Of a stretch of DNA of 64,000 nucleotides, positions 26,246 to 49,373 are shown piece after piece (within the stretch, counting starts at the first letter, position 1; every line of letters starts with the position of its first letter). Source of the stretch: Escherichia coli (GTDB lineage: Bacteria; Pseudomonadota; Gammaproteobacteria; Enterobacterales; Enterobacteriaceae); the NCBI RefSeq assembly GCF_009931435.1, contig NZ_CP043414.1. One strand, written 5' to 3'. The notes under the pieces are model-generated. The model was not told the origin of the DNA, searched no databases, and saw only the letters and a program-made list of their open reading frames with translations. Position numbers and translations under genes: made by a program.

Positions 26246-27256
26246 TTAGATATGGGTAACGATTTCTTTAATCAGCGGCGGTCCTTTAAAAATAAAACCA
26301 GAATAAATTTGCACCAGTGAGGCCCCCGCAGCAATCTTTTCACGCGCAGCGATAACCGAGTCAATGCCGCCAACACCGATGATCGGTAAGCGACCGTTTA
26401 ATTCCTGAGACAAACGGCGAATAATTTCGGTGCTTTTTAACTGTAGCGGACGACCACTTAAGCCACCGGTTTGATCACAATTTTTCATTCCCTGAACCAG
26501 AGAACGATCGAGCGTGGTATTGGTTGCAATAACGCCATCAATATTATGGCGAACTAAACTATCGGCAACCTGGATCAATTCTTCTTCAGAAAGATCCGGC
26601 GCGATCTTCACGGCGATCGGCACATATTTATGGTGCATCGCTTGCAAATCATTTTGCTTATTTTTAATCGCGGTTAAGAGATCATCCAGCGCTTCGCCAT
26701 ATTGCAGTGTGCGTAATCCTGGGGTATTCGGCGATGAAATATTGATGGCGATATATCCCGCATAGGCATAGATTTTTTCCATACAAATCAGATAGTCATC
26801 TTTACCCTGCTCCACCGGCGTATCTTTATTTTTGCCGATATTAATCCCCAGAACACCATCGTAATGAGCTTTTTTTACGTTCTCAACGAGGTTATCAACG
26901 CCGAGATTATTAAAGCCCATACGGTTGATCAAACCTTCGGCATCTACCAGACGAAAGAGACGCGGCTTGTCATTACCTGGCTGTGGACGTGGCGTGACGG
27001 TACCGATCTCGATAGATCCAAACCCCATCGCGCCTAACGCGTCAATGCACTCCCCGTCTTTATCAAGACCGGCTGCCAGACCAAGCGGATTTTTAAACGT
27101 CAGGCCCATGCAGTTAACAGGTTTCGCAGGCACTTTCTGCCGCACCAGTGCTTCAAACGGTGTTCCTGTAATACGGCGTAATTGCTGAAAAGTAAACTCA
27201 TGAGCGCGCTCTGGATCGAGCTGGAAAAGGGCTTTACGAACGAAGGGGTAGTACAT
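26246..27256 (-). CDS. pyrD: dihydroorotate dehydrogenase (quinone)
   Basis: 336 aa from [21 protein letters not shown]...; the track ORF has a 9-aa extension. Confidence 0.95.
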
Positions 27257-27492
27257 GAACTCTCCTGGATTCCCGGTGTGCAAACCGGGGGCGTATTATG
27301 TGCGAGTTCGGACCAAAAGGGAATTGACCTACGGCAATAAATAGCAAACGTTTTCTTATTGCGCTTTTTTTATGCTTTTTTTGGCTTTGCTTCGTCAGAT
27401 AAATCATTTCGACTCGCGGACGCCCTCTGTCAGACTGACCAAATTGTTATCAATTTTAACAAAACAAGAACAATTGGTTATAAGGAGAGAGT

Positions 27493-28068
27493 ATGCGTGT
27501 CATCACCCTGGCGGGGAGTCCTCGCTTTCCTTCTCGCTCCAGCTCCTTGCTGGAATATGCGCGGGAAAAACTGAATGGCCTGGATGTAGAGGTTTATCAC
27601 TGGAATCTGCAAAACTTCGCCCCGGAAGATCTGCTTTATGCTCGTTTCGATAGTCCGGCACTCAAGACCTTCACCGAACAGCTGCAACAGGCTGATGGAC
27701 TGATAGTCGCTACACCTGTGTATAAAGCCGCCTATTCCGGTGCGCTGAAAACCCTGCTCGACCTGCTGCCAGAGCGCGCTTTGCAAGGCAAAGTGGTGCT
27801 GCCGCTGGCGACGGGCGGCACGGTGGCTCACCTTTTGGCGGTCGATTACGCCCTTAAACCGGTTTTAAGCGCACTGAAAGCCCAGGAGATCCTGCACGGC
27901 GTGTATGCCGATGACTCACAGGTGATTGATTACCACCACAAACCCCAATTCACGCCAAATCTGCAAACCCGTCTTGATACCGCGCTAGAAACTTTCTGGC
28001 AGGCACTTCACCGCCGTGATGTTCAGGTTCCTGACCTTCTGTCTCTGCGAGGTAATGCCCATGCGTAA
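27493..28068 (+). CDS. ssuE: NADPH-dependent FMN reductase
   Basis: 191-aa ORF with an aaggag RBS; first gene of ssuEADCB. Confidence 0.93.
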   Translation: MRVITLAGSPRFPSRSSSLLEYAREKLNGLDVEVYHWNLQNFAPEDLLYARFDSPALKTFTEQLQQADGLIVATPVYKAAYSGALKTLLDLLPERALQGKVVLPLATGGTVAHLLAVDYALKPVLSALKAQEILHGVYADDSQVIDYHHKPQFTPNLQTRLDTALETFWQALHRRDVQVPDLLSLRGNAHA

Positions 28069-29020
28069 GATCATTAAACTGGCGCTGGCGGGATTGCTTA
28101 GCGTCTCTACACTCGCGATTGCCGCAGAGTCGTCTCCAGATGCGTTACGTATTGGCTATCAGAAAGGCAGTATTGGTATGGTGCTGGCAAAAAGCCACCA
28201 ATTATTGGAAAAACGCTATCCGCAAACAAAAATCTCGTGGGTGGAGTTCCCCGCTGGCCCACAGATGCTGGAGGCGTTAAACGTTGGCAGTATCGATCTC
28301 GGCAGTACCGGGGATATTCCACCAATCTTTGCCCAGGCTGCCGGGGCTGATTTGGTGTACGTGGGCGTCGAGCCGCCGAAGCCCAAAGCCGAAGTGATTC
28401 TGGTGGCAGATAACAGTCCGATCAAAACCGTAGCCGATCTTAAAGGTCACAAAGTTGCCTTTCAGAAAGGTTCCAGCTCGCACAATCTTTTACTACGCGC
28501 ACTACGCCAGGCCGGGCTTAAATTCACGGATATCCAGCCCACTTACCTGACGCCTGCCGATGCCCGCGCCGCGTTCCAGCAAGGTAACGTCGACGCATGG
28601 GCTATCTGGGATCCCTACTACTCCGCTGCGTTATTACAGGGCGGCGTGCGGGTGCTGAAAGACGGCACCGATCTTAATCAAACCGGCTCGTTTTACCTGG
28701 CAGCTCGTCCCTATGCAGAAAAAAACGGCGCATTTATTCAGGGTGTACTGGCAACCTTTAGTGAGGCCGATGCGTTAACCCGCAGCCAGCGCGAGCAAAG
28801 CATCGCTTTACTGGCAAAAACGATGGGCTTACCAACGCCGGTGATTGCCTCTTATTTAGATCATCGCCCCCCTACCACCATCAAACCGGTTAACGCCGAG
28901 GTTGCCGCCTTACAGCAGCAAACGGCAGATCTGTTTTATGAAAACCGTCTGGTACCGAAAAAAGTCGATATCCGCCAGCGCATCTGGCAGCCCACTCAAC
29001 TGGAAGGAAAACAATTATGA
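28061..29020 (+). CDS. ssuA: aliphatic sulfonate ABC transporter periplasmic binding protein
   Basis: 319 aa from [15 protein letters not shown]... with a signal peptide; 8-nt overlap with ssuE. Confidence 0.92.
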
Positions 29021-30162
29021 GTCTGTATATGTTCTGGTTTTTACCGACCCACGGAGACGGACATTACCTGGGAACGGAAGAAGGTTCACGCCCGGTTGAT
29101 CACGGTTATCTGCAACAAATTGCGCAAGCGGCGGATCGTCTGGGCTATACCGGTGTGCTAATTCCCACAGGGCGCTCGTGTGAAGATGCGTGGCTGGTGG
29201 CAGCGTCGATGATCCCTGTGACGCAACGGTTGAAGTTTCTTGTTGCCCTGCGCCCCAGCGTAACCTCACCTACCGTTGCTGCCCGCCAGGCCGCCACGCT
29301 GGATCGTCTCTCTAACGGACGCGCGTTGTTTAATCTGGTCACAGGCAGCGATCCGCAAGAGCTGGCAGGCGACGGCGTATTCCTCGATCATTGCGAGCGT
29401 TACGAAGCCTCGTCTGAATTTACACAGGTCTGGCGGCGCTTATTGCAGGGCGAAACCGTCGATTTTAACGGTAAACATATACATGTACGCGGAGCAAAAC
29501 TGCTCTTCCCGCCAATTCAACAGCCCTATCCTCCGCTTTACTTTGGCGGCTCGTCAGACGTCGCCCAGGATCTGGCCGCTGAACAGGTTGATCTCTACCT
29601 CACCTGGGGCGAACCACCGGAGCTGGTAAAAGAGAAGATCGCGCAAGTGCGGGCGAAAGCTGCCGCGCATGGACGCAAAATTCGTTTCGGTATTCGTCTG
29701 CATGTGATTGTTCGTGAAACTAACGACGAAGCGTGGCAGGCCGCCGAGCGGTTAATCTCGCATCTTGATGATGAGACCATCGCCAAAGCACAAGCCGCGT
29801 TTGCCCGCACCGATTCCGTGGGGCAACAGCGAATGGCGGCGCTACATAACGGCAAGCGCGACAATCTGGAAATCAGCCCCAATTTATGGGCGGGCGTTGG
29901 CTTAGTGCGCGGCGGTGCCGGGACGGCGTTGGTGGGCGATGGTCCGACGGTCGCCGCGCGAATCAACGAATACGCTGCGCTTGGCATCGACAGCTTTGTG
30001 CTTTCTGGTTATCCGCATCTGGAAGAAGCGTATCGGGTCGGCGAGTTGTTGTTCCCACATCTGGATATTGCCATTCCGGAAATTCCCCAGCCACAACCGC
30101 TGAATCCGCAAGGCGAAGCGGTGGCGAATGATTTTATCCCCCGTAACGTCGCGCAAAGCTAA
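29017..30162 (+). CDS. ssuD: FMNH2-dependent alkanesulfonate monooxygenase
   Basis: 381-aa ORF; 4-nt overlap with ssuA. Confidence 0.94.
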
Positions 30163-31729: not shown

Positions 31730-31925
31730 ATGCCGGATGTGGCGCACAAAAACAGCGGTTTCAACGGATTGTAGGCCTGATAAGACGCGTCAAGCGTCGC
31801 ATCAGGCATTTGGGCACGGCTGCCGGATGCGGCGTGAACGCCTTATCCAGCCTACAAAACCAGCATTTTCAACGGACTTGTAGGCCTGATAAGACGCGTC
31901 AAGCGTCGCATCCGGCATTTGGGCT
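31730..31925. repeat. REP/BIME cluster: three REP palindromes in alternating orientation, with an about 55-bp imperfect direct repeat
   Basis: taggcctgataagacgcgtcaagcgtcgcatcaggca (31771-31807), gccggatgcggcgtgaacgccttatccagcctac (31821-31854), and a second gcctgataagacgcgtcaagcgtcgcatccggc copy (31879-31914). Confidence 0.85.
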
Positions 31926-36182: not shown

Positions 36183-37583
36183 ATGAGCGTTGTGCCTGTA
36201 GCCGACGTACTCCAGGGCCGCGTAGCCGTTGACAGCGAAGTCACCGTGCGCGGATGGGTACGTACCCGCCGAGATTCAAAAGCTGGCATCTCCTTCCTCG
36301 CCGTTTATGACGGTTCCTGCTTTGATCCTGTACAGGCTGTCATCAATAATTCTCTGCCCAATTACAATGAAGACGTTCTGCGTCTGACCACCGGTTGCTC
36401 GGTCATTGTGACGGGTAAAGTCGTGGCGTCGCCAGGACAGGGGCAACAATTTGAAATTCAGGCCAGCAAGGTTGAAGTTGCTGGTTGGGTTGAAGATCCA
36501 GACACTTACCCGATGGCGGCAAAACGCCACAGCATTGAGTATCTGCGTGAAGTCGCTCACCTGCGTCCGCGCACAAACCTGATTGGTGCCGTCGCGCGCG
36601 TTCGCCATACGCTGGCGCAGGCGCTGCATCGCTTCTTTAACGAGCAGGGATTCTTCTGGGTTTCAACGCCACTGATTACTGCGTCTGATACCGAAGGGGC
36701 TGGCGAAATGTTCCGCGTTTCTACGCTGGATCTGGAAAACCTGCCGCGTAACGATCAGGGCAAAGTGGATTTCGACAAAGACTTCTTTGGTAAAGAGTCT
36801 TTCCTGACCGTATCTGGCCAGTTGAATGGCGAAACCTACGCTTGCGCATTGTCCAAAATTTATACCTTCGGCCCGACTTTCCGTGCTGAAAACTCCAACA
36901 CCAGCCGTCACCTGGCGGAATTCTGGATGCTGGAGCCGGAAGTGGCGTTTGCTAACCTGAACGATATCGCGGGTCTGGCTGAAGCCATGCTGAAATATGT
37001 CTTCAAAGCGGTTCTCGAAGAACGCGCTGACGACATGAAATTCTTCGCTGAACGCGTAGATAAAGATGCCGTTTCACGTCTGGAACGCTTTATTGAGGCC
37101 GATTTCGCGCAGGTGGATTACACCGACGCAGTGACCATTCTCGAAAACTGCGGCAGGAAGTTTGAAAACCCGGTTTACTGGGGCGTCGATCTCTCTTCTG
37201 AGCATGAGCGTTATCTGGCAGAAGAACACTTTAAAGCACCGGTAGTGGTTAAAAACTATCCGAAAGATATTAAAGCGTTCTATATGCGCCTTAACGAAGA
37301 CGGTAAAACCGTTGCGGCTATGGATGTTCTGGCTCCGGGCATCGGTGAAATCATTGGTGGTTCTCAGCGTGAAGAGCGTCTGGACGTGCTGGACGAGCGT
37401 ATGCTGGAAATGGGCCTGAATAAAGAAGATTACTGGTGGTATCGCGATCTGCGTCGCTACGGTACTGTTCCGCATTCCGGTTTCGGTCTTGGTTTTGAAC
37501 GCCTGATTGCTTACGTAACTGGCGTGCAAAACGTGCGTGATGTGATTCCGTTCCCACGTACTCCGCGTAACGCCAGCTTCTAA
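36183..37583 (+). CDS. asnS: asparaginyl-tRNA synthetase
   Basis: 466 aa from [25 protein letters not shown].... Confidence 0.96.
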
Positions 37584-37596
37584 TTTAGCGTCTTCA

Positions 37597-37626
37597 AGAG
37601 CCAGCACCCGCTGGCTCTTTTTTTAT
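37597..37626 (+). terminator. rho-independent terminator after asnS
   Basis: Hairpin agagccagc-accc-gctggctct followed by a T7 run. Confidence 0.8.
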
Positions 37627-37974
37627 CCTTTCTGTCAAGTTATCTGTTTGTTAAGTCAAGCAATCTATTTGCAACCCCGCCATAACGATCATCCTGTTAC
37701 GGAATATTACACTGCAACATTTGCGCACAAAAAATAATCCGCATTCTTATTGCGGATTAGTTTTTTCTTAGCTGATAGCACAATTTTCATACTATTTTTT
37801 GGCGTTCTGGATGTCTGAACGAGGATTTAATGCCAGGTCGATAAAGTTTCCATCAGAAACAAAATTTCCTTTTAGTTAATTTAAATATAAGGAAATCATA
37901 TAAATAGATAAAAATTGCTGTAAATATCATCACGCTTCTATGGAAATATGACGGTGTTCACAAAGTTCCTTAAA

Positions 37975-38075
37975 TTTTACTTTTAGTTACATATTTTTTC
38001 TTTTTGAAACCAAATCTTTATCTTTGTAGCACTTTCACGGTAGCGAAACGTTAGTTTGAATGGAAAGATGCCTGC
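37975..38075 (+). promoter_or_regulatory. ompF promoter with tandem OmpR-binding sites (F1-F3 region); transcription start near 38070
   Basis: ttttacttttagttacatattttttctttttgaaaccaaatctttatctttgtagcactttcacgg matches the ompF OmpR-site region as I recall it, at the expected distance from the ATG. A long AT-rich upstream region spans 37626-38184. Confidence 0.65.
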
Positions 38076-38184
38076 AGACACATAAAGACACCAAACTCTC
38101 ATCAATAGTTCCGTAAATTTTTTTTGACAGAACTTATTGACGGCAGTGGCAGGTGTCATAAAAAAACCATGAGGGTAATAAATA

Positions 38185-39273
38185 ATGATGAAGCGCAATA
38201 TTCTGGCAGTGATCGTCCCTGCTCTGTTAGTAGCAGGTACTGCAAACGCTGCAGAAATTTATAACAAAGATGGCAACAAAGTAGATCTGTACGGTAAAGC
38301 TGTCGGTCTGCATTATTTCTCCAAGGGTAACGGTGAAAACAGTTACGGTGGCAATGGCGACATGACCTATGCCCGTCTTGGTTTTAAAGGGGAAACTCAA
38401 ATCAATTCCGATCTGACCGGTTATGGTCAGTGGGAATATAACTTCCAGGGTAACAACTCTGAAGGCACTGACGCTCAAACTGGTAACAAAACCCGTCTGG
38501 CATTCGCGGGTCTTAAATACGCTGACGTTGGTTCTTTCGATTACGGCCGTAACTACGGTGTGGTTTATGATGCACTGGGTTACACCGATATGCTGCCAGA
38601 ATTTGGTGGTGATACTGCATACAGCGATGACTTCTTCGTTGGTCGTGTTGGCGGCGTTGCTACCTATCGTAACTCCAACTTCTTTGGTCTGGTTGATGGC
38701 CTGAACTTCGCTGTTCAGTACCTGGGTAAAAACGAGCGTGACACTGCACGCCGCTCTAACGGCGACGGTGTTGGCGGTTCTATCAGCTACGAATACGAAG
38801 GCTTTGGTATCGTTGGTGCTTATGGCGCCGCTGACCGTACCAACCTGCAAGAAGCTCAACCTCTTGGCAACGGTAAAAAAGCTGAACAGTGGGCTACTGG
38901 TCTGAAGTATGACGCGAACAACATCTACCTGGCAGCGAACTACGGTGAAACCCGTAACGCTACGCCGATCACTAATAAATTTACAAACATCAGCGGCTTC
39001 GCCAACAAAACGCAAGATGTTCTGTTAGTTGCGCAATACCAGTTCGATTTCGGTCTGCGTCCGTCCATCGCTTACACCAAATCTAAAGCGAAAGACGTAG
39101 AAGGTATCGGTGATGTTGATCTGGTGAACTACTTTGAAGTGGGCGCAACCTACTACTTCAACAAAAACATGTCCACCTATGTTGACTACATCATCAACCA
39201 GATCGATTCTGACAACAAACTGGGCGTAGGTTCAGACGACACCGTTGCTGTGGGTATCGTTTACCAGTTCTAA
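38185..39273 (+). CDS. ompF: outer membrane porin F
   Basis: 362-aa ORF ([22 protein letters not shown] | [10 protein letters not shown]...) ending in the porin C-terminal ...VGIVYQF. Confidence 0.97.
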
Positions 39274-44208: not shown

Positions 44209-47200
44209 TTAACTCGCCTGGGAAGGCGCTTCGTCAGTTCCTGGAAGCGTTTCAGGGAGTTGCGGTGCAAAACCACGCAGACCGACTACGTGAACGTGTT
44301 CGGTATTCTGGAAGACTTTACGCACCAGTTTATAGGTGGTGCCTTTTTCCGGGCTGATATTTTCCGGCGCTGCGATGATGAGCTGCATTTGCAAACGCTC
44401 ACACAATTCAAACAGCGTGGCGATGGAACGGGCATCCAGTCGCGCTGCTTCATCAAGGAACAGCAGACGGCAAGGAGAGATATCTTTACCGCGCAAGCGG
44501 CGAGATTCATCTTCCCAACTCTGTACCACCATCACCAGAATCGACATACCGGTACCAATAGCCTCACCGGTCGACAATGCACCAGATTCCGCGCGCAACC
44601 AGCCATCGGAACCACGGTTAACCTCAACTTCCATTTCAAGATAGTTACGGTAATCCAGCAGTTCTTCACCGATGGTCTGCGGCGTGCGCTGCCCCATATC
44701 AATCTGCGGATTAAGGCGCTGATACAGTTTCGCCAGCGCTTCCGAGAAGGTCAGACGGTTGCTGTTAAACAGATCCTGATGTTGTTCGTGCTGTTCAGAG
44801 AGCACATCCAGCAGCATGGCGTGCGTTTCACGCACGTTCACGTTGAGGCGCACGCTGTTCACCTGGCCAAACGATACGCTCTGCAAGCCCTGGTTGAGCA
44901 TACGGATACGGTTCTGCTCGCGCTGAATGGTTTTGCGAATAATGTTCGCCACGCTGCGGGAACTGATCGCCAGTTTCTGTTCGCGGGAGGTTAACTCTTC
45001 AGTCAGACGGCTAAGTTCGATCTCCATCTGCTCGATAGCTTCAACCGGATCATCGGTACGAATAATATCCTGACGAATACGCTCGCGCAGATGCTGATAA
45101 ACCGCCACGAAGAACTGAATTTTACGTTCCGGACGTTTTGGATCTTCCGACATACGCAGCACGTCGCGCAGATGTTCGTTATCCGCTACCGCGAGACGCA
45201 ACGCACCCAACGCCTTATCCGACATGGAACGCAAATCATCAGCGGAGAGATAAGCCAGCTCACGACGGTGTAAGCGGCGCTCAACACCGTTATCTTTCAC
45301 CATGCGCATCACTGCACACCAGCCCGCTTTCGCGGTCACTACCTGCTCGCGCATCTCAAAGTAATCACGCTCCAGCTTGCGCAGTTTGCGGGTCAGGTTG
45401 TCCATCTCCGCTTCGCAGAAGGTAAGCGCTTTTTCCAGTTGGTTGCGGCGTGAACGGTTATTGCTCAGTTGCGCGTGCAACTCGTCACGGCGAATACGCG
45501 CCCGCTCTTCTGCCCCGCTATCAGCACGCACGCCGATATCCTGCAATTCACGTTGCAGATCGTTGAGTAGCTCTTTTTTGGTGTCGTAAGAACTTTTCAG
45601 CGAAGCCAGCACCTGGTTGTACTGACTCAACTGCGCTGCGTGTCCGCGCAACGCTTCACGAGCGCGGGTACGCTCCGCTTCCGCCTGTTCCAGACGTTCA
45701 CGCAGTTTTTCGTTGAGATCGCTGTTACCGCTAAGCATTTCTGCCGAGTCAGAGTAGCTAAAGTGCGCACGACGCTGCACCACTTCCGTCAGGGCAAACG
45801 CCTGCTGACGGGCATCGCGCTGCATCTGCTGAGAGTACGCGTAATCTTCTTTTAACTGTTCGAACTGTTCCGGGTCGCTCTGCAATACCGAAACGATCGG
45901 TTCCAGTTTCGCCAGTTGATTGCCAAACTGCTGAACAAAACGCGCGGCTTCCTGGGCTTCATCCAGACGTTCGCGGATTTCATCGACGCGATCTGCCAGG
46001 CTGTCATCAGCCAGCAGGTTAAGACGCGGCAGAATGCGGTTCAGGGCCGTAACGCCCTCTTTCGCCTGCTCAAACTGAATACGCTGCTGCTGGTTATCAT
46101 TTTCATGATTACTCAACGCCCGCTCCAGTTCGACGCGACGGCTGTTCAGTTGACGGATTTCTGCTTCCGGGTCAGACTCAAACGCCACCGCCAGATGACT
46201 ACCTATAAAGCGGCTGAACGCCTGATGCAGACGCTGGGTTTTCTGTACATCAAAAGAGAGTGTGGCGAAGCGTTCGGAAAGCACTTCACGTTCGGCATGG
46301 AGGCTTTCGATGCGGCTTTCGCGAGCAGCACGACCAAACAGCGGCACTTCCGGGAAACGTGAATAACGCCACTGACGATCGGCGATTTTCACCACTACCG
46401 CTTTTTCCAGCTCATCAACGCTGAACACGCTGTCATCGAATGACTGCGGATCCCCTTCGATCAGATAGAGATCTTCCGGGCAATCGGTCAAGCCTTCCAG
46501 GTGTTCGGTTACCTGTGACAGATCTGACACCACGATGGCGTGGCGTGACGGGCCATACAGTGCTGAGAAGTACGGCGCATCTTCCAGGCTAACGTCGTCA
46601 TAAATTTCTGACAGCAACACGCCGCCAAAACGCTCCGCCAGCGCATTCAGACGCTGGTCTTCAGAGCCGCCTGGCTGGCTTAAACGTTCGATCTCTTCAT
46701 CGACGGCGTTTTTGCGTGCGCCAACTTCGTCACGTTCAACAATGGCTTCGCGCTCACGCTCCAGCAACTGTTGCAGATATTCGGTGACGTCCTGGCTTGA
46801 GGAGAATTCTTCGCCGCACTGTTCGCTCAACTGGTTGAGACTGTTTTGCGCTGCCAGCCAAACCGGCGCACGCTGCATCAAACTCTGAATGCGAGACTGC
46901 AGCTGTTCCTGCTCCTGGCGCAGTGCCATCCGCTCTTCTCGGGCGTTAGAGACGCTATCGGAAAGAGAGGCAATGCGTGCTTCCAGCTCCTGATGCAGAG
47001 CTTCCAGTTCATCAATATCAAAATTCTTGCCCTGACGTTTGCAGAAATCTGCCAGCAGACGCTCAGCTTCTTGCTGTTCACGCAGACGCTGTTCCAGTTC
47101 GCTTAAGCGCATCCGCAACGGCTGAACCTGCTCTGCCAGGTGACGCTGATCGACCCCTTCGCGCAATAGTTCGCGAGCGACATCCCACGCCTCGTTACGC

Positions 47201-48669
47201 GCCAGCGGGCCGTTGATTGCCACCACCAGCTGATAAGCCTGCTCAAACTGGCTGTGCGCGGTTTGCGCCATGCTCATTTTCTGCTCAAGAGAGAGCATTT
47301 TTTCGGTCGCTTCCAGCTCTTTCGCCTGGAAGGTTTCCAGCCATTCGGCGGCGCTGTCGGCGGTTAAGTCCGGCAGATGGCACAGTTCTTTGGCACGATT
47401 AAGCGCAGCAATCGCCTGGTTGTACTGGATCGCGCGCGTTTGCTGGACGTCCAGCGCCTGCTGGTAGTCAGCAAGCTGGCTTTTCAGCTCGTCCACTTCC
47501 AGCTCGGCAGCTTCCGCACGAGCCTCGTTCTCTTCCTGGCGTTCGATGGCTTCTGCCACCACTTCGTTTTGCTCTTCCAGACGGATCTGCAGCTCATCGA
47601 GATCCGCTTCGTAGCGTTCGATCTTCTCCTGCTGACGTAGTGCGGTTTGCACCAGGTTCAGGTGATCGCTGGCCGCCTGATAATCCGCTTCCAGATCGCC
47701 TTCGGCACCATTGTGCTCAGCCAGCTCACGCGCCATATCGACATGCTTGTACTGCTCTGCCGCCAGTTGCTGACGCGAAGTGTGAAGCTCACGACGAAAC
47801 TCCAGCGCTTTATCCAGGTGAACACGGCGCTCGTTGGCGTGGCGCATGTAGTCCGCCGCCACGTAGTTAGTCGCTTCGCTGATCAGATGCTTGAACAAGT
47901 CACGGTCAGACTGGGTAACACGAATCGCTTCCAGCGTCATACGGTTTTCACGCAGCGCCGCTTCCATGTCCTGAAACGCTTTACGCACGCCGCTATTTTC
48001 TGGCAACAGGTAGTCGCGCAGAGAACGGGTGATGGCGCTGGAAATCCCGCCGTACAGCGAAGCTTCAATCAGACGATAGAATTTACTACGATCAGACGCT
48101 GAGCGCAGACGACGTGCGATGATGCCCAGATCGAACATCAGCGAGTGGTAATCGGTAATAGAGTTGAACTGCTTAAACTGCACGCCTTCCATCGCTTCGA
48201 GCTTGTCTTTCAGCTCGTTAAGCGGCAGCACGCGCGCCTGACGTTCATTCAGAGTTTCGGTCACCAGTTGTGTCGGCTGCACCGACATCGGCAAGCCCTG
48301 AATGGCAAATGGTTTGATATCAACTTTACGATCGCGCCCGGCAACCTGTTGCAGACGCACACCGACCACTACACGCTGGTGGCGCGAGTTAATGGTGTCG
48401 AGCATCGAATAACAGACACCCGCTTTCAGCTTACCGTGCAGACCTTTATCGCGCGAACCGCTGGTGGCCCCGGCTTCCGTAGTGTTACGGAAATGCAGCA
48501 GGGTCAGGTCGGGGATAAGCGCCGTAACGAACGCCGCCATGGTGGTGGATTTACCCGCCCCGTTACCGCCAGAAAGCGTCGTGACCAGCTCGTCAAGGTC
48601 AAAAGTTCGGGCAAAAAAGCCGTTCCAGTTAATCAGCGTCAGTGAGCGAAATTTACCGCGTTCAATCAT
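44209..48669 (-). CDS. mukB: chromosome partition (condensin) protein MukB
   Basis: 1486-aa ORF with an N-terminal Walker A (GGNGAGKST), long coiled coils and a C-terminal ABC-like head. Confidence 0.97.
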
Positions 48670-49373
48670 TATTCTTCCTCTCCGCTATCTGGCTGATTCT
48701 CTTCGGTTTCATCGTTGAGTTGCAGATGATTTTCAATCGGCATTGCTTCGCCATCACGAATCAGGCGACGCTGTGCTTCACGGGGATCGTCGCCAGCACG
48801 CACATCGGCTCCGAAGCGGAACACCGATTCGGTAATGCGGAACTTGCTGCTGTCGTGGCCCATAAACCACACCATGCCTAAACGACGCAGACGGTTGAGC
48901 GAAGAACGTACTTTCTCCTGCAACTTCTGCCGGTCAACGTCTGAACCGGTTGAACGGTTGTTCACCAGTTTCAGCAGTTTCGCTTCATCGGCCAGGGTGA
49001 GCAGTTCATCGTACAGTTCCTGCTGGGTGAAAATCCCCTCATTCGCCAGCCGTTCCGGGCTGAGATAAAGATAACAGAGGATTTTCCCGACCATCATATC
49101 CAGTTCCGACAAGACGGAACGAGGGATAATAGTGGTGGAACGTGGGCGTAAATAGAAGAACCCCTCCGGTGCGCGAATAAGCTCAACGTTATAACGCGCG
49201 TAAAATTCTTCCAGATATTCCTGAAAATCCATCAGGAATGCATGATTATCCAGTTCGTCAAGGCCAATATGGCGGCCTGAACGTAAGGCGCTATCCAGCG
49301 CCGGAAATAACGGATTCGCCAGCGCCTGCGCCAGCTTAACCGGCATCACTTGTTCAATATTTGTCGATGACAT
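48669..49373 (-). CDS. mukE: condensin subunit MukE
   Basis: 234 aa from [13 protein letters not shown].... Its stop overlaps the mukB start (TAATG), and its 5' end overlaps the mukF 3' end by 20 nt. Confidence 0.9.

Follow-up and report, generated by a model that had tools for sequence, protein, structure and literature searches.

A canonical OmpR-controlled ompF regulatory region in Escherichia coli with a common variant base in OmpR site F1

The K-12 model and the identity of the locus

In the established K-12 model of ompF control, applied here to the present locus by homology (PMC3050692, PMC543474, PMC3264566), OmpR recognises 20-bp sites that consist of paired half-sites of 10 bp, whose conserved core is (G/T)NNAC (PMC3050692, PMC3264566). 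By this model, OmpR-P would load as tandem dimers, occupying F1 first and then F2 and F3 (-100 to -41), and from F1-F3 it would recruit RNA polymerase to a promoter whose -35 region is weak. The distal site F4, published as lying 260 bp upstream of F1 (PMC3050692), is the low-affinity site for repression at high osmolarity (PMC3050692, PMC543474); at high OmpR-P it would be filled too, and looping of the AT-rich DNA in between would repress ompF. Additionally, the MicF RNA would pair with the segment that holds the SD and the AUG, blocking translation. The OmpR motif obtained in K-12 by ChIP-exo, KWWGTTACAT, is in line with the older tTTGTTACAT repeat (PMC5438342). A natural single-base change within this system is also on record: in the ST410 OXA-181 subclade, a C>T substitution at a conserved F3 cytosine cuts ompF mRNA 15- to 30-fold (Patino-Navarrete et al. 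2020, PMC6970295).

The region analysed here, part of a 64-kb stretch of DNA that we call the window, is the well-known, canonical OmpR-controlled promoter and regulatory region of E. coli ompF, and as such already known. According to NCBIfam equivalog models, the spacer is flanked on its 5' side by asnS (ORF end at 37583; 710 bits, above the cut-off) and on its 3' side by ompF (38185-39273; 793 bits against a cut-off of 583). Both genes lie on the same strand, with the spacer between them in the position of the ompF promoter, and the gene order pncB-asnS-ompF-aspC is that of K-12, which reads on the opposite strand. The spacer is present as a single copy in 5,424 of 5,426 complete E. coli genomes. 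The spacer and the terminator within it are placed as follows:

37584-38184: asnS-ompF spacer, 601 bp
37596..37626, plus strand: asnS intrinsic terminator, with a 10-bp G+C-rich stem, a 4-nt loop and a T7 run

A first-pass annotation, made from the sequence alone, had read this DNA as the ompF regulatory region, and the flanking genes, the synteny with K-12 and the 96.8% identity over the spacer bear that reading out. Its length of about 560 bp falls short of the full 601 bp; the 559 bp counted from 37626 correspond to the part beyond the asnS terminator. The terminator hairpin, picked up by a terminator scan, has a dG of -17.8 kcal/mol (z -6.6), and its loop base 37606 is polymorphic, being A here and G in K-12. 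An Rfam search of the spacer returned no family at the gathering score or at E<=1, save one chance-level match of 16.6 bits. Elsewhere, two families score above the gathering threshold on the minus strand, the PyrD leader at 27251-27324 (97.9 bits) and naRNA4/CssrE at 31774-31852 (82.2 bits).

Taken together, we consider it very probable that this is a canonical OmpR-controlled ompF promoter with an IAI39-like spacer, and that the A at 37985, inside F1, is a neutral or near-neutral polymorphism.

The OmpR sites and the variant base of F1

The ompF transcription start, which we take to lie 110 nt upstream of the ATG in K-12, falls at 38076 here, and the boundaries of the F sites are likewise taken to be those of the K-12 literature. 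The placement at 38076 is supported by the exact 10-bp register of F1-F4 and by the 260-bp gap between F4 and F1. The sites are as follows:

37696..37715, plus strand: OmpR site F4 (distal), -380 to -361, GTTACGGAATATTACACTGC, 19 of 20 bases as in K-12
37976..37995, plus strand: OmpR site F1, -100 to -81, TTTACTTTTA followed by GTTACATATT, 19 of 20 bases as in K-12
37996..38015, plus strand: OmpR site F2, -80 to -61, TTTTCTTTTTGAAACCAAAT, identical to K-12
38016..38035, plus strand: OmpR site F3, -60 to -41, CTTTATCTTTGTAGCACTTT, identical to K-12

F1, F2 and F3 are contiguous at 20 bp each, with the half-site cores TTTAC/GTTAC, TTTTC/GAAAC and GTAGC intact, and the distance from F4 to F1 is exactly the published 260 bp. 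In comparison with K-12, the core cytosines of the F1-F4 half-sites are all intact. The array recognised in the first-pass annotation is therefore present, with F2 and F3 identical to K-12 and one base off in each of F1 and F4. Full agreement with K-12 over the OmpR sites, which would have spoken against that annotation, is thus absent. The single OmpR-site difference that it had flagged is real and lies in F1, at 37985, but a second exists in F4: position 37712 (F4 position 17, F4b position 7) is C here and T in K-12. This C/T position is polymorphic in E. coli, and the C is also found in IAI39, IHE3034 and SCU-109. Across the 64-kb window, KWWGTTACAT with at most one mismatch is not enriched (16 matches, 19.7 expected). 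Since both this motif scan and the IHF scan given below are at chance level, the array is identified by homology to the mapped K-12 sites.

Other positions in or beside the OmpR sites vary among strains as well, namely 37974, 37988, 38011 and 38016, at all four of which the window has the K-12 state. B2 strains have GTCACA for GTTACA in F1b (37988 T>C) and GAAACT for GAAACC in F2b (38011), and in one E. coli strain F3 begins with T (38016).

In the alignment, the window reads ACTTTTAGTTACAT, with A at 37985, where K-12 MG1655 reads ACTTTTGGTTACAT, with G, so the K-12 base given in the first-pass annotation was the right one. This position (-91) is the last base of half-site F1a and stands directly 5' of the GTTACA core of F1b; by its place in the sequence, it is the variable F1a/F1b junction base, outside the conserved core bases. 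Three alleles occur in the nine E. coli spacers aligned: the window shares its A with IAI39 and strain 106, K-12 and four further strains have G, and the B2 strain IHE3034 alone has T. An exact-haplotype search of complete genomes found the A haplotype of the window in 228 genomes and a second A haplotype, of the O157:H7 type, in 345, together with 1,864 genomes carrying the K-12 G haplotype and 236 with an exact T haplotype. Together, at least 573 of the 5,426 complete E. coli genomes (about 11%), O157:H7 among them, have the A. Among 11 genomes sampled evenly from the remaining classes, four have T, four G and three A; all these allele frequencies are lower bounds or small-sample estimates, as the BLAST low-complexity filter blocks some short queries. 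Megablast with short 41-mers gave counts for the A and G alleles, but not for the T allele or the T8 run discussed below. Even the 41-mer of IHE3034 itself went unmatched because of the filter, which makes the lack of a match to a short query uninformative, and an 81-mer and, in blastn mode, 61-mers were used instead. A census with a 59-mer query (2,207 genomes) was rejected, given that the common SNPs at 37974 and 38011 break both of its 28-base seed words.

For comparison with other genera, a 23-mer from F3 and the -35 region was scanned on species-representative genomes, yielding seven loci: E. albertii, a divergent representative labelled E. coli, S. enterica subsp. arizonae and four Citrobacter. 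At the position corresponding to 37985, E. albertii and one C. amalonaticus have G and the other five of the seven have A, S. arizonae, C. koseri and two Citrobacter being among the A carriers. Directly 3' of it, the core reads GTTACA in all seven loci except S. arizonae, where it is TTTACA. The presence of three common alleles in E. coli, along with the alternation of A and G between genera, indicates a weakly constrained position. With regard to the OmpR motif, an A before GTTACAT fits the W, while the G of K-12 (TTGGTTACAT) is a mismatch, and TTAGTTACAT at 37983-37992 is the only exact KWWGTTACAT match in the 64 kb. Thus, the A is no lesion of F1 and, if anything, brings the site nearer to the consensus. 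Base 37985 A is a common lineage polymorphism, probably neutral or near-neutral and not damage to an OmpR contact.

In an alternative scenario, which we judge unlikely, the A at -91 is functional: the change from TTGGTTACAT to the consensus TTAGTTACAT would raise the affinity of the nucleating site F1 for OmpR-P and shift the set-point of ompF, giving more OmpF at low OmpR-P in the lineages that carry it. The base does lie inside the 20-bp F1, adjoining the F1b core, the ChIP-exo motif favours A or T at this position (PMC5438342), with the A version as the only exact match in the window, and a single-base change in an OmpR box can, as in ST410, shift ompF expression 15- to 30-fold (PMC6970295). 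However, all three alleles are widespread among the lineages of E. coli, the base switches between A and G from genus to genus, and the F1 of K-12, with its G, is already the high-affinity site. Moreover, the functional mutation documented in ST410 affects a conserved core cytosine and not a junction base (PMC6970295). The two cases are alike in being single-base natural changes within an OmpR box of the ompF promoter (PMC6970295), but the ST410 change hits a conserved F3 cytosine, which we take to be the one in the GTAGC half-site core retained here, whereas the window differs at a non-conserved F1 junction base and keeps its core cytosines intact. We therefore return to the reading of 37985 A as a neutral or near-neutral polymorphism; since the sole F1 difference from K-12 is a common natural variant, the finding is an ordinary one.

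Promoter, leader and other elements of the spacer

Downstream of F3, the elements are as follows:

38040..38076, plus strand: ompF core promoter, with a weak -35 (GTAGCG), the -10 AAAGAT at 38064-38069 and the inferred TSS at 38076
38076..38184, plus strand: ompF 5' UTR, 109 nt here against 110 nt in K-12
38168..38195, plus strand: MicF-complementary segment (SD and start codon), CATGAGGGTAATAAATAATGATGAAGC, identical to K-12

The core promoter (38040..38076) is identical to that of K-12 and invariant in Escherichia, Salmonella and Citrobacter. Conservation across the seven loci, in part amounting to invariance, extends over the T-rich stretch of F2, F3, the core promoter and the initial 21 nt of the transcript, although the invariance of F3 and the -35 region across species is partly built in, the search 23-mer having been taken from there. 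The UTR is 109 nt long owing to an A7 run at 38160-38166, upstream of the SD, which is A8 in K-12 and polymorphic in E. coli. At 38123 (+48), the window has T and K-12 has A, so that TTTTTATT becomes T8 (T5AT2 to T8); the aligned E. albertii and Citrobacter sequences have A at this position and S. arizonae has G. The T8 run stands directly 5' of a TTGACA. The block 38169-38188 is invariant across the species compared, and the duplex energy with K-12 micF is the same for the UTRs of the window and K-12 (-39.5 and -39.4 kcal/mol), in a crude calculation that ignores the hairpins of micF, over-extends the duplex and is of use solely for comparing the window with K-12. Nothing in these features suggests that any regulatory step is disabled, while A in place of G at -91, the F4 C/T position or the +48 A>T change might conceivably alter regulation to a modest, quantitative degree.

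The AT-richness noted at first reading is pronounced. G+C amounts to 33.3% in the spacer region and 51.2% in the 64-kb window, and the lowest-GC 559-bp stretch in all 64 kb starts at 37631. This composition (33% against 51% G+C, the lowest of any stretch of such length in the window) is what might speak for horizontally acquired foreign DNA silenced by H-NS, a reading that we regard as improbable in the extreme. The spacer sits between asnS and ompF in 5,424 of 5,426 E. coli genomes, and it also precedes ompF in E. albertii, S. arizonae and Citrobacter, where long blocks of it are invariant. Given this conservation of synteny and sequence in sister genera, a foreign origin of the low-GC block was rejected in favour of a native ompF regulatory region.

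The extensive A/T tracts of the first-pass annotation are present: homopolymer tracts of at least 4 bases are 2.4-fold denser than in the window (23.3 against 9.7 per kb), but they are not in excess of the composition of the spacer, as 102 of 1000 shuffles reach their number. The tracts are weakly phased at 10.5 bp (resultant R=0.53, n=13). On base composition and this weak phasing, curvature of the DNA in the ompF spacer is plausible, and the same two features would be consistent with nucleoid-protein binding. The IHF consensus WATCAANNNNTTR has one match in the spacer, with one mismatch, at 38008-38020 inside F2/F3, and over the whole window it matches no more often than chance predicts (51 found, 51.9 expected). 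The interspecies alignment yields a further block:

37893..37910, no strand assigned: block GAAATCATATAAATAGAT, at about -183 to -166

It is largely kept between species, with single substitutions in some, and lies outside the fully invariant blocks. The block lies at the position of a putative IHF site upstream of ompF, at which the IHF consensus scan gave no match.

Two additional elements lie between F4 and F1:

37729..37766, no strand assigned: inverted repeat TAATCCGCA-N7-TGCGGATTA, -347 to -310
37947..37966, no strand assigned: candidate CRP-like palindrome TATGA-N6-TCACA, centred at about -121.5, read from the sequence

The inverted repeat, with perfect 9-bp arms and A6 and T6 flanks, forms a bidirectional terminator-like hairpin (dG -14 kcal/mol; z -5.0 on the plus and -3.5 on the minus strand). 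Only E. coli proper has the hairpin in a strong form (-20 kcal/mol in K-12, -15 in the window). E. albertii, Salmonella and Citrobacter have lost it, and yet the right arm, TTGCGGATTAG, does not vary among the seven species compared. The TATGA-N6-TCACA palindrome itself (37947-37962) would be a near-consensus candidate of the CRP type, and it overlaps the block GTTCACAAAG, which is invariant across species. Of the sigma-70-like matches in the spacer, the best (TTTACA-18-TATGAT, 10 of 12 bases, 37924..37895 on the minus strand) points away from ompF, and a divergent transcript of about 150 nt, running from it toward the hairpin at 37759-37735, would be possible. Finally, a direct repeat joins AAAATTTCCTTTTAGTTA (37861-37878) and AAATTTTACTTTTAGTTA (37972-37989), which agree in 16 of 18 bases at a distance of 111 bp. 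The first of them looks like the F1a/F1b junction, and the two copies are more alike here (37870 T, 37985 A) than in K-12; the repeat may be due to chance.

Mosaic ancestry of the strain and significance

Over about 601 bp, the K-12 and window spacers differ by 18 substitutions and one single-base indel (96.8% identity). Both have the same genes on their flanks and a spacing of 260 bp between F4 and F1, and F2, F3, the -35 and -10, the surroundings of the TSS and the SD/AUG segment targeted by micF are identical; the differences include A for G at 37985 in F1, C for T at 37712 in F4, T for A at 38123 and A7 in place of A8. The spacers of IAI39, AR_0077, SCU-172, CE10 and SMS-3-5 are far closer (99.2-99.5% identical) and agree with the window at 37985 (A) as well as at 37712 (C). 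The IAI39 spacer is 99.5% identical, with three substitutions (37606, 37830 and 38123), yet the IAI39 ompF coding sequence is only 90% identical to that of the window. The latter is instead 99.0-99.6% identical to those of K-12 and strain 2020CK-00188, and asnS is 100% identical to that of 2020CK-00188. OmpF itself differs from the K-12 protein at two residues, A95T and T269I. The locus 36183-39273 is thus a mosaic: with an IAI39-like spacer and a K-12/2020CK-00188-like coding sequence, the promoter and the ompF gene have had different recombination histories, which implies a recombination junction near the start of ompF.

This patchiness extends beyond ompF. The best complete genome over 25 kb is 98.3% identical, with 99.4-100% in the surroundings of ompF and 93-95% in the ssu operon and mukB. 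These two segments, 27000-29999 (ssu operon) and 46000-48999 (part of mukB), are at 93-96% identity while neighbouring kilobases are at 99-100%, and they look like recombination tracts from a lineage that may be poorly represented among complete genomes.

The same comparisons bear on whether the differences from K-12 could be sequencing or assembly errors, which we hold to be very improbable. Two of them are private to the strain: the 81-mer context of 38123 A>T has no exact match in 5,416 complete E. coli genomes, and neither has the context of 37830 G>A in about 5,416. Both being absent from all of these genomes would be expected of errors, and the change at 38123 lengthens a homopolymer (T5AT2 to T8), an error-prone context. 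On the other hand, the base flagged at 37985, A, has exact counterparts in 573 or more independent genomes, and the F4 base 37712 C recurs in IAI39, IHE3034 and SCU-109. Furthermore, both private changes are substitutions and not the indels typical of homopolymer errors, and a divergence from the best match of 0-0.6% near ompF and up to 6.6% elsewhere leads one to expect a few private SNPs. In view of this patchy divergence and of the mosaic locus, a few such SNPs are unremarkable, and we treat the differences as genuine natural variation.

Few bacterial promoters have been studied as closely as that of ompF, and the base in question is a common polymorphism, so the finding matters little in itself. 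We think it improbable, though worth stating, that the natural alleles of the spacer (A/G/T at -91, C/T in F4 and the private +48 A>T) tune the amount of OmpF between lineages. If they did, they would affect the permeability of the outer membrane to beta-lactams, and K-12 would be an atypical reference for ompF osmoregulation. The OmpR-box bases with a known influence on ompF expression, and through it on beta-lactam permeability, are the conserved core cytosines, which are intact here. At F1 position 10, two other alleles are frequent beside the G of K-12, which fits the OmpR motif worst of the three, and models of OmpR site strength built on K-12 should therefore not treat F1 position 10 as informative.
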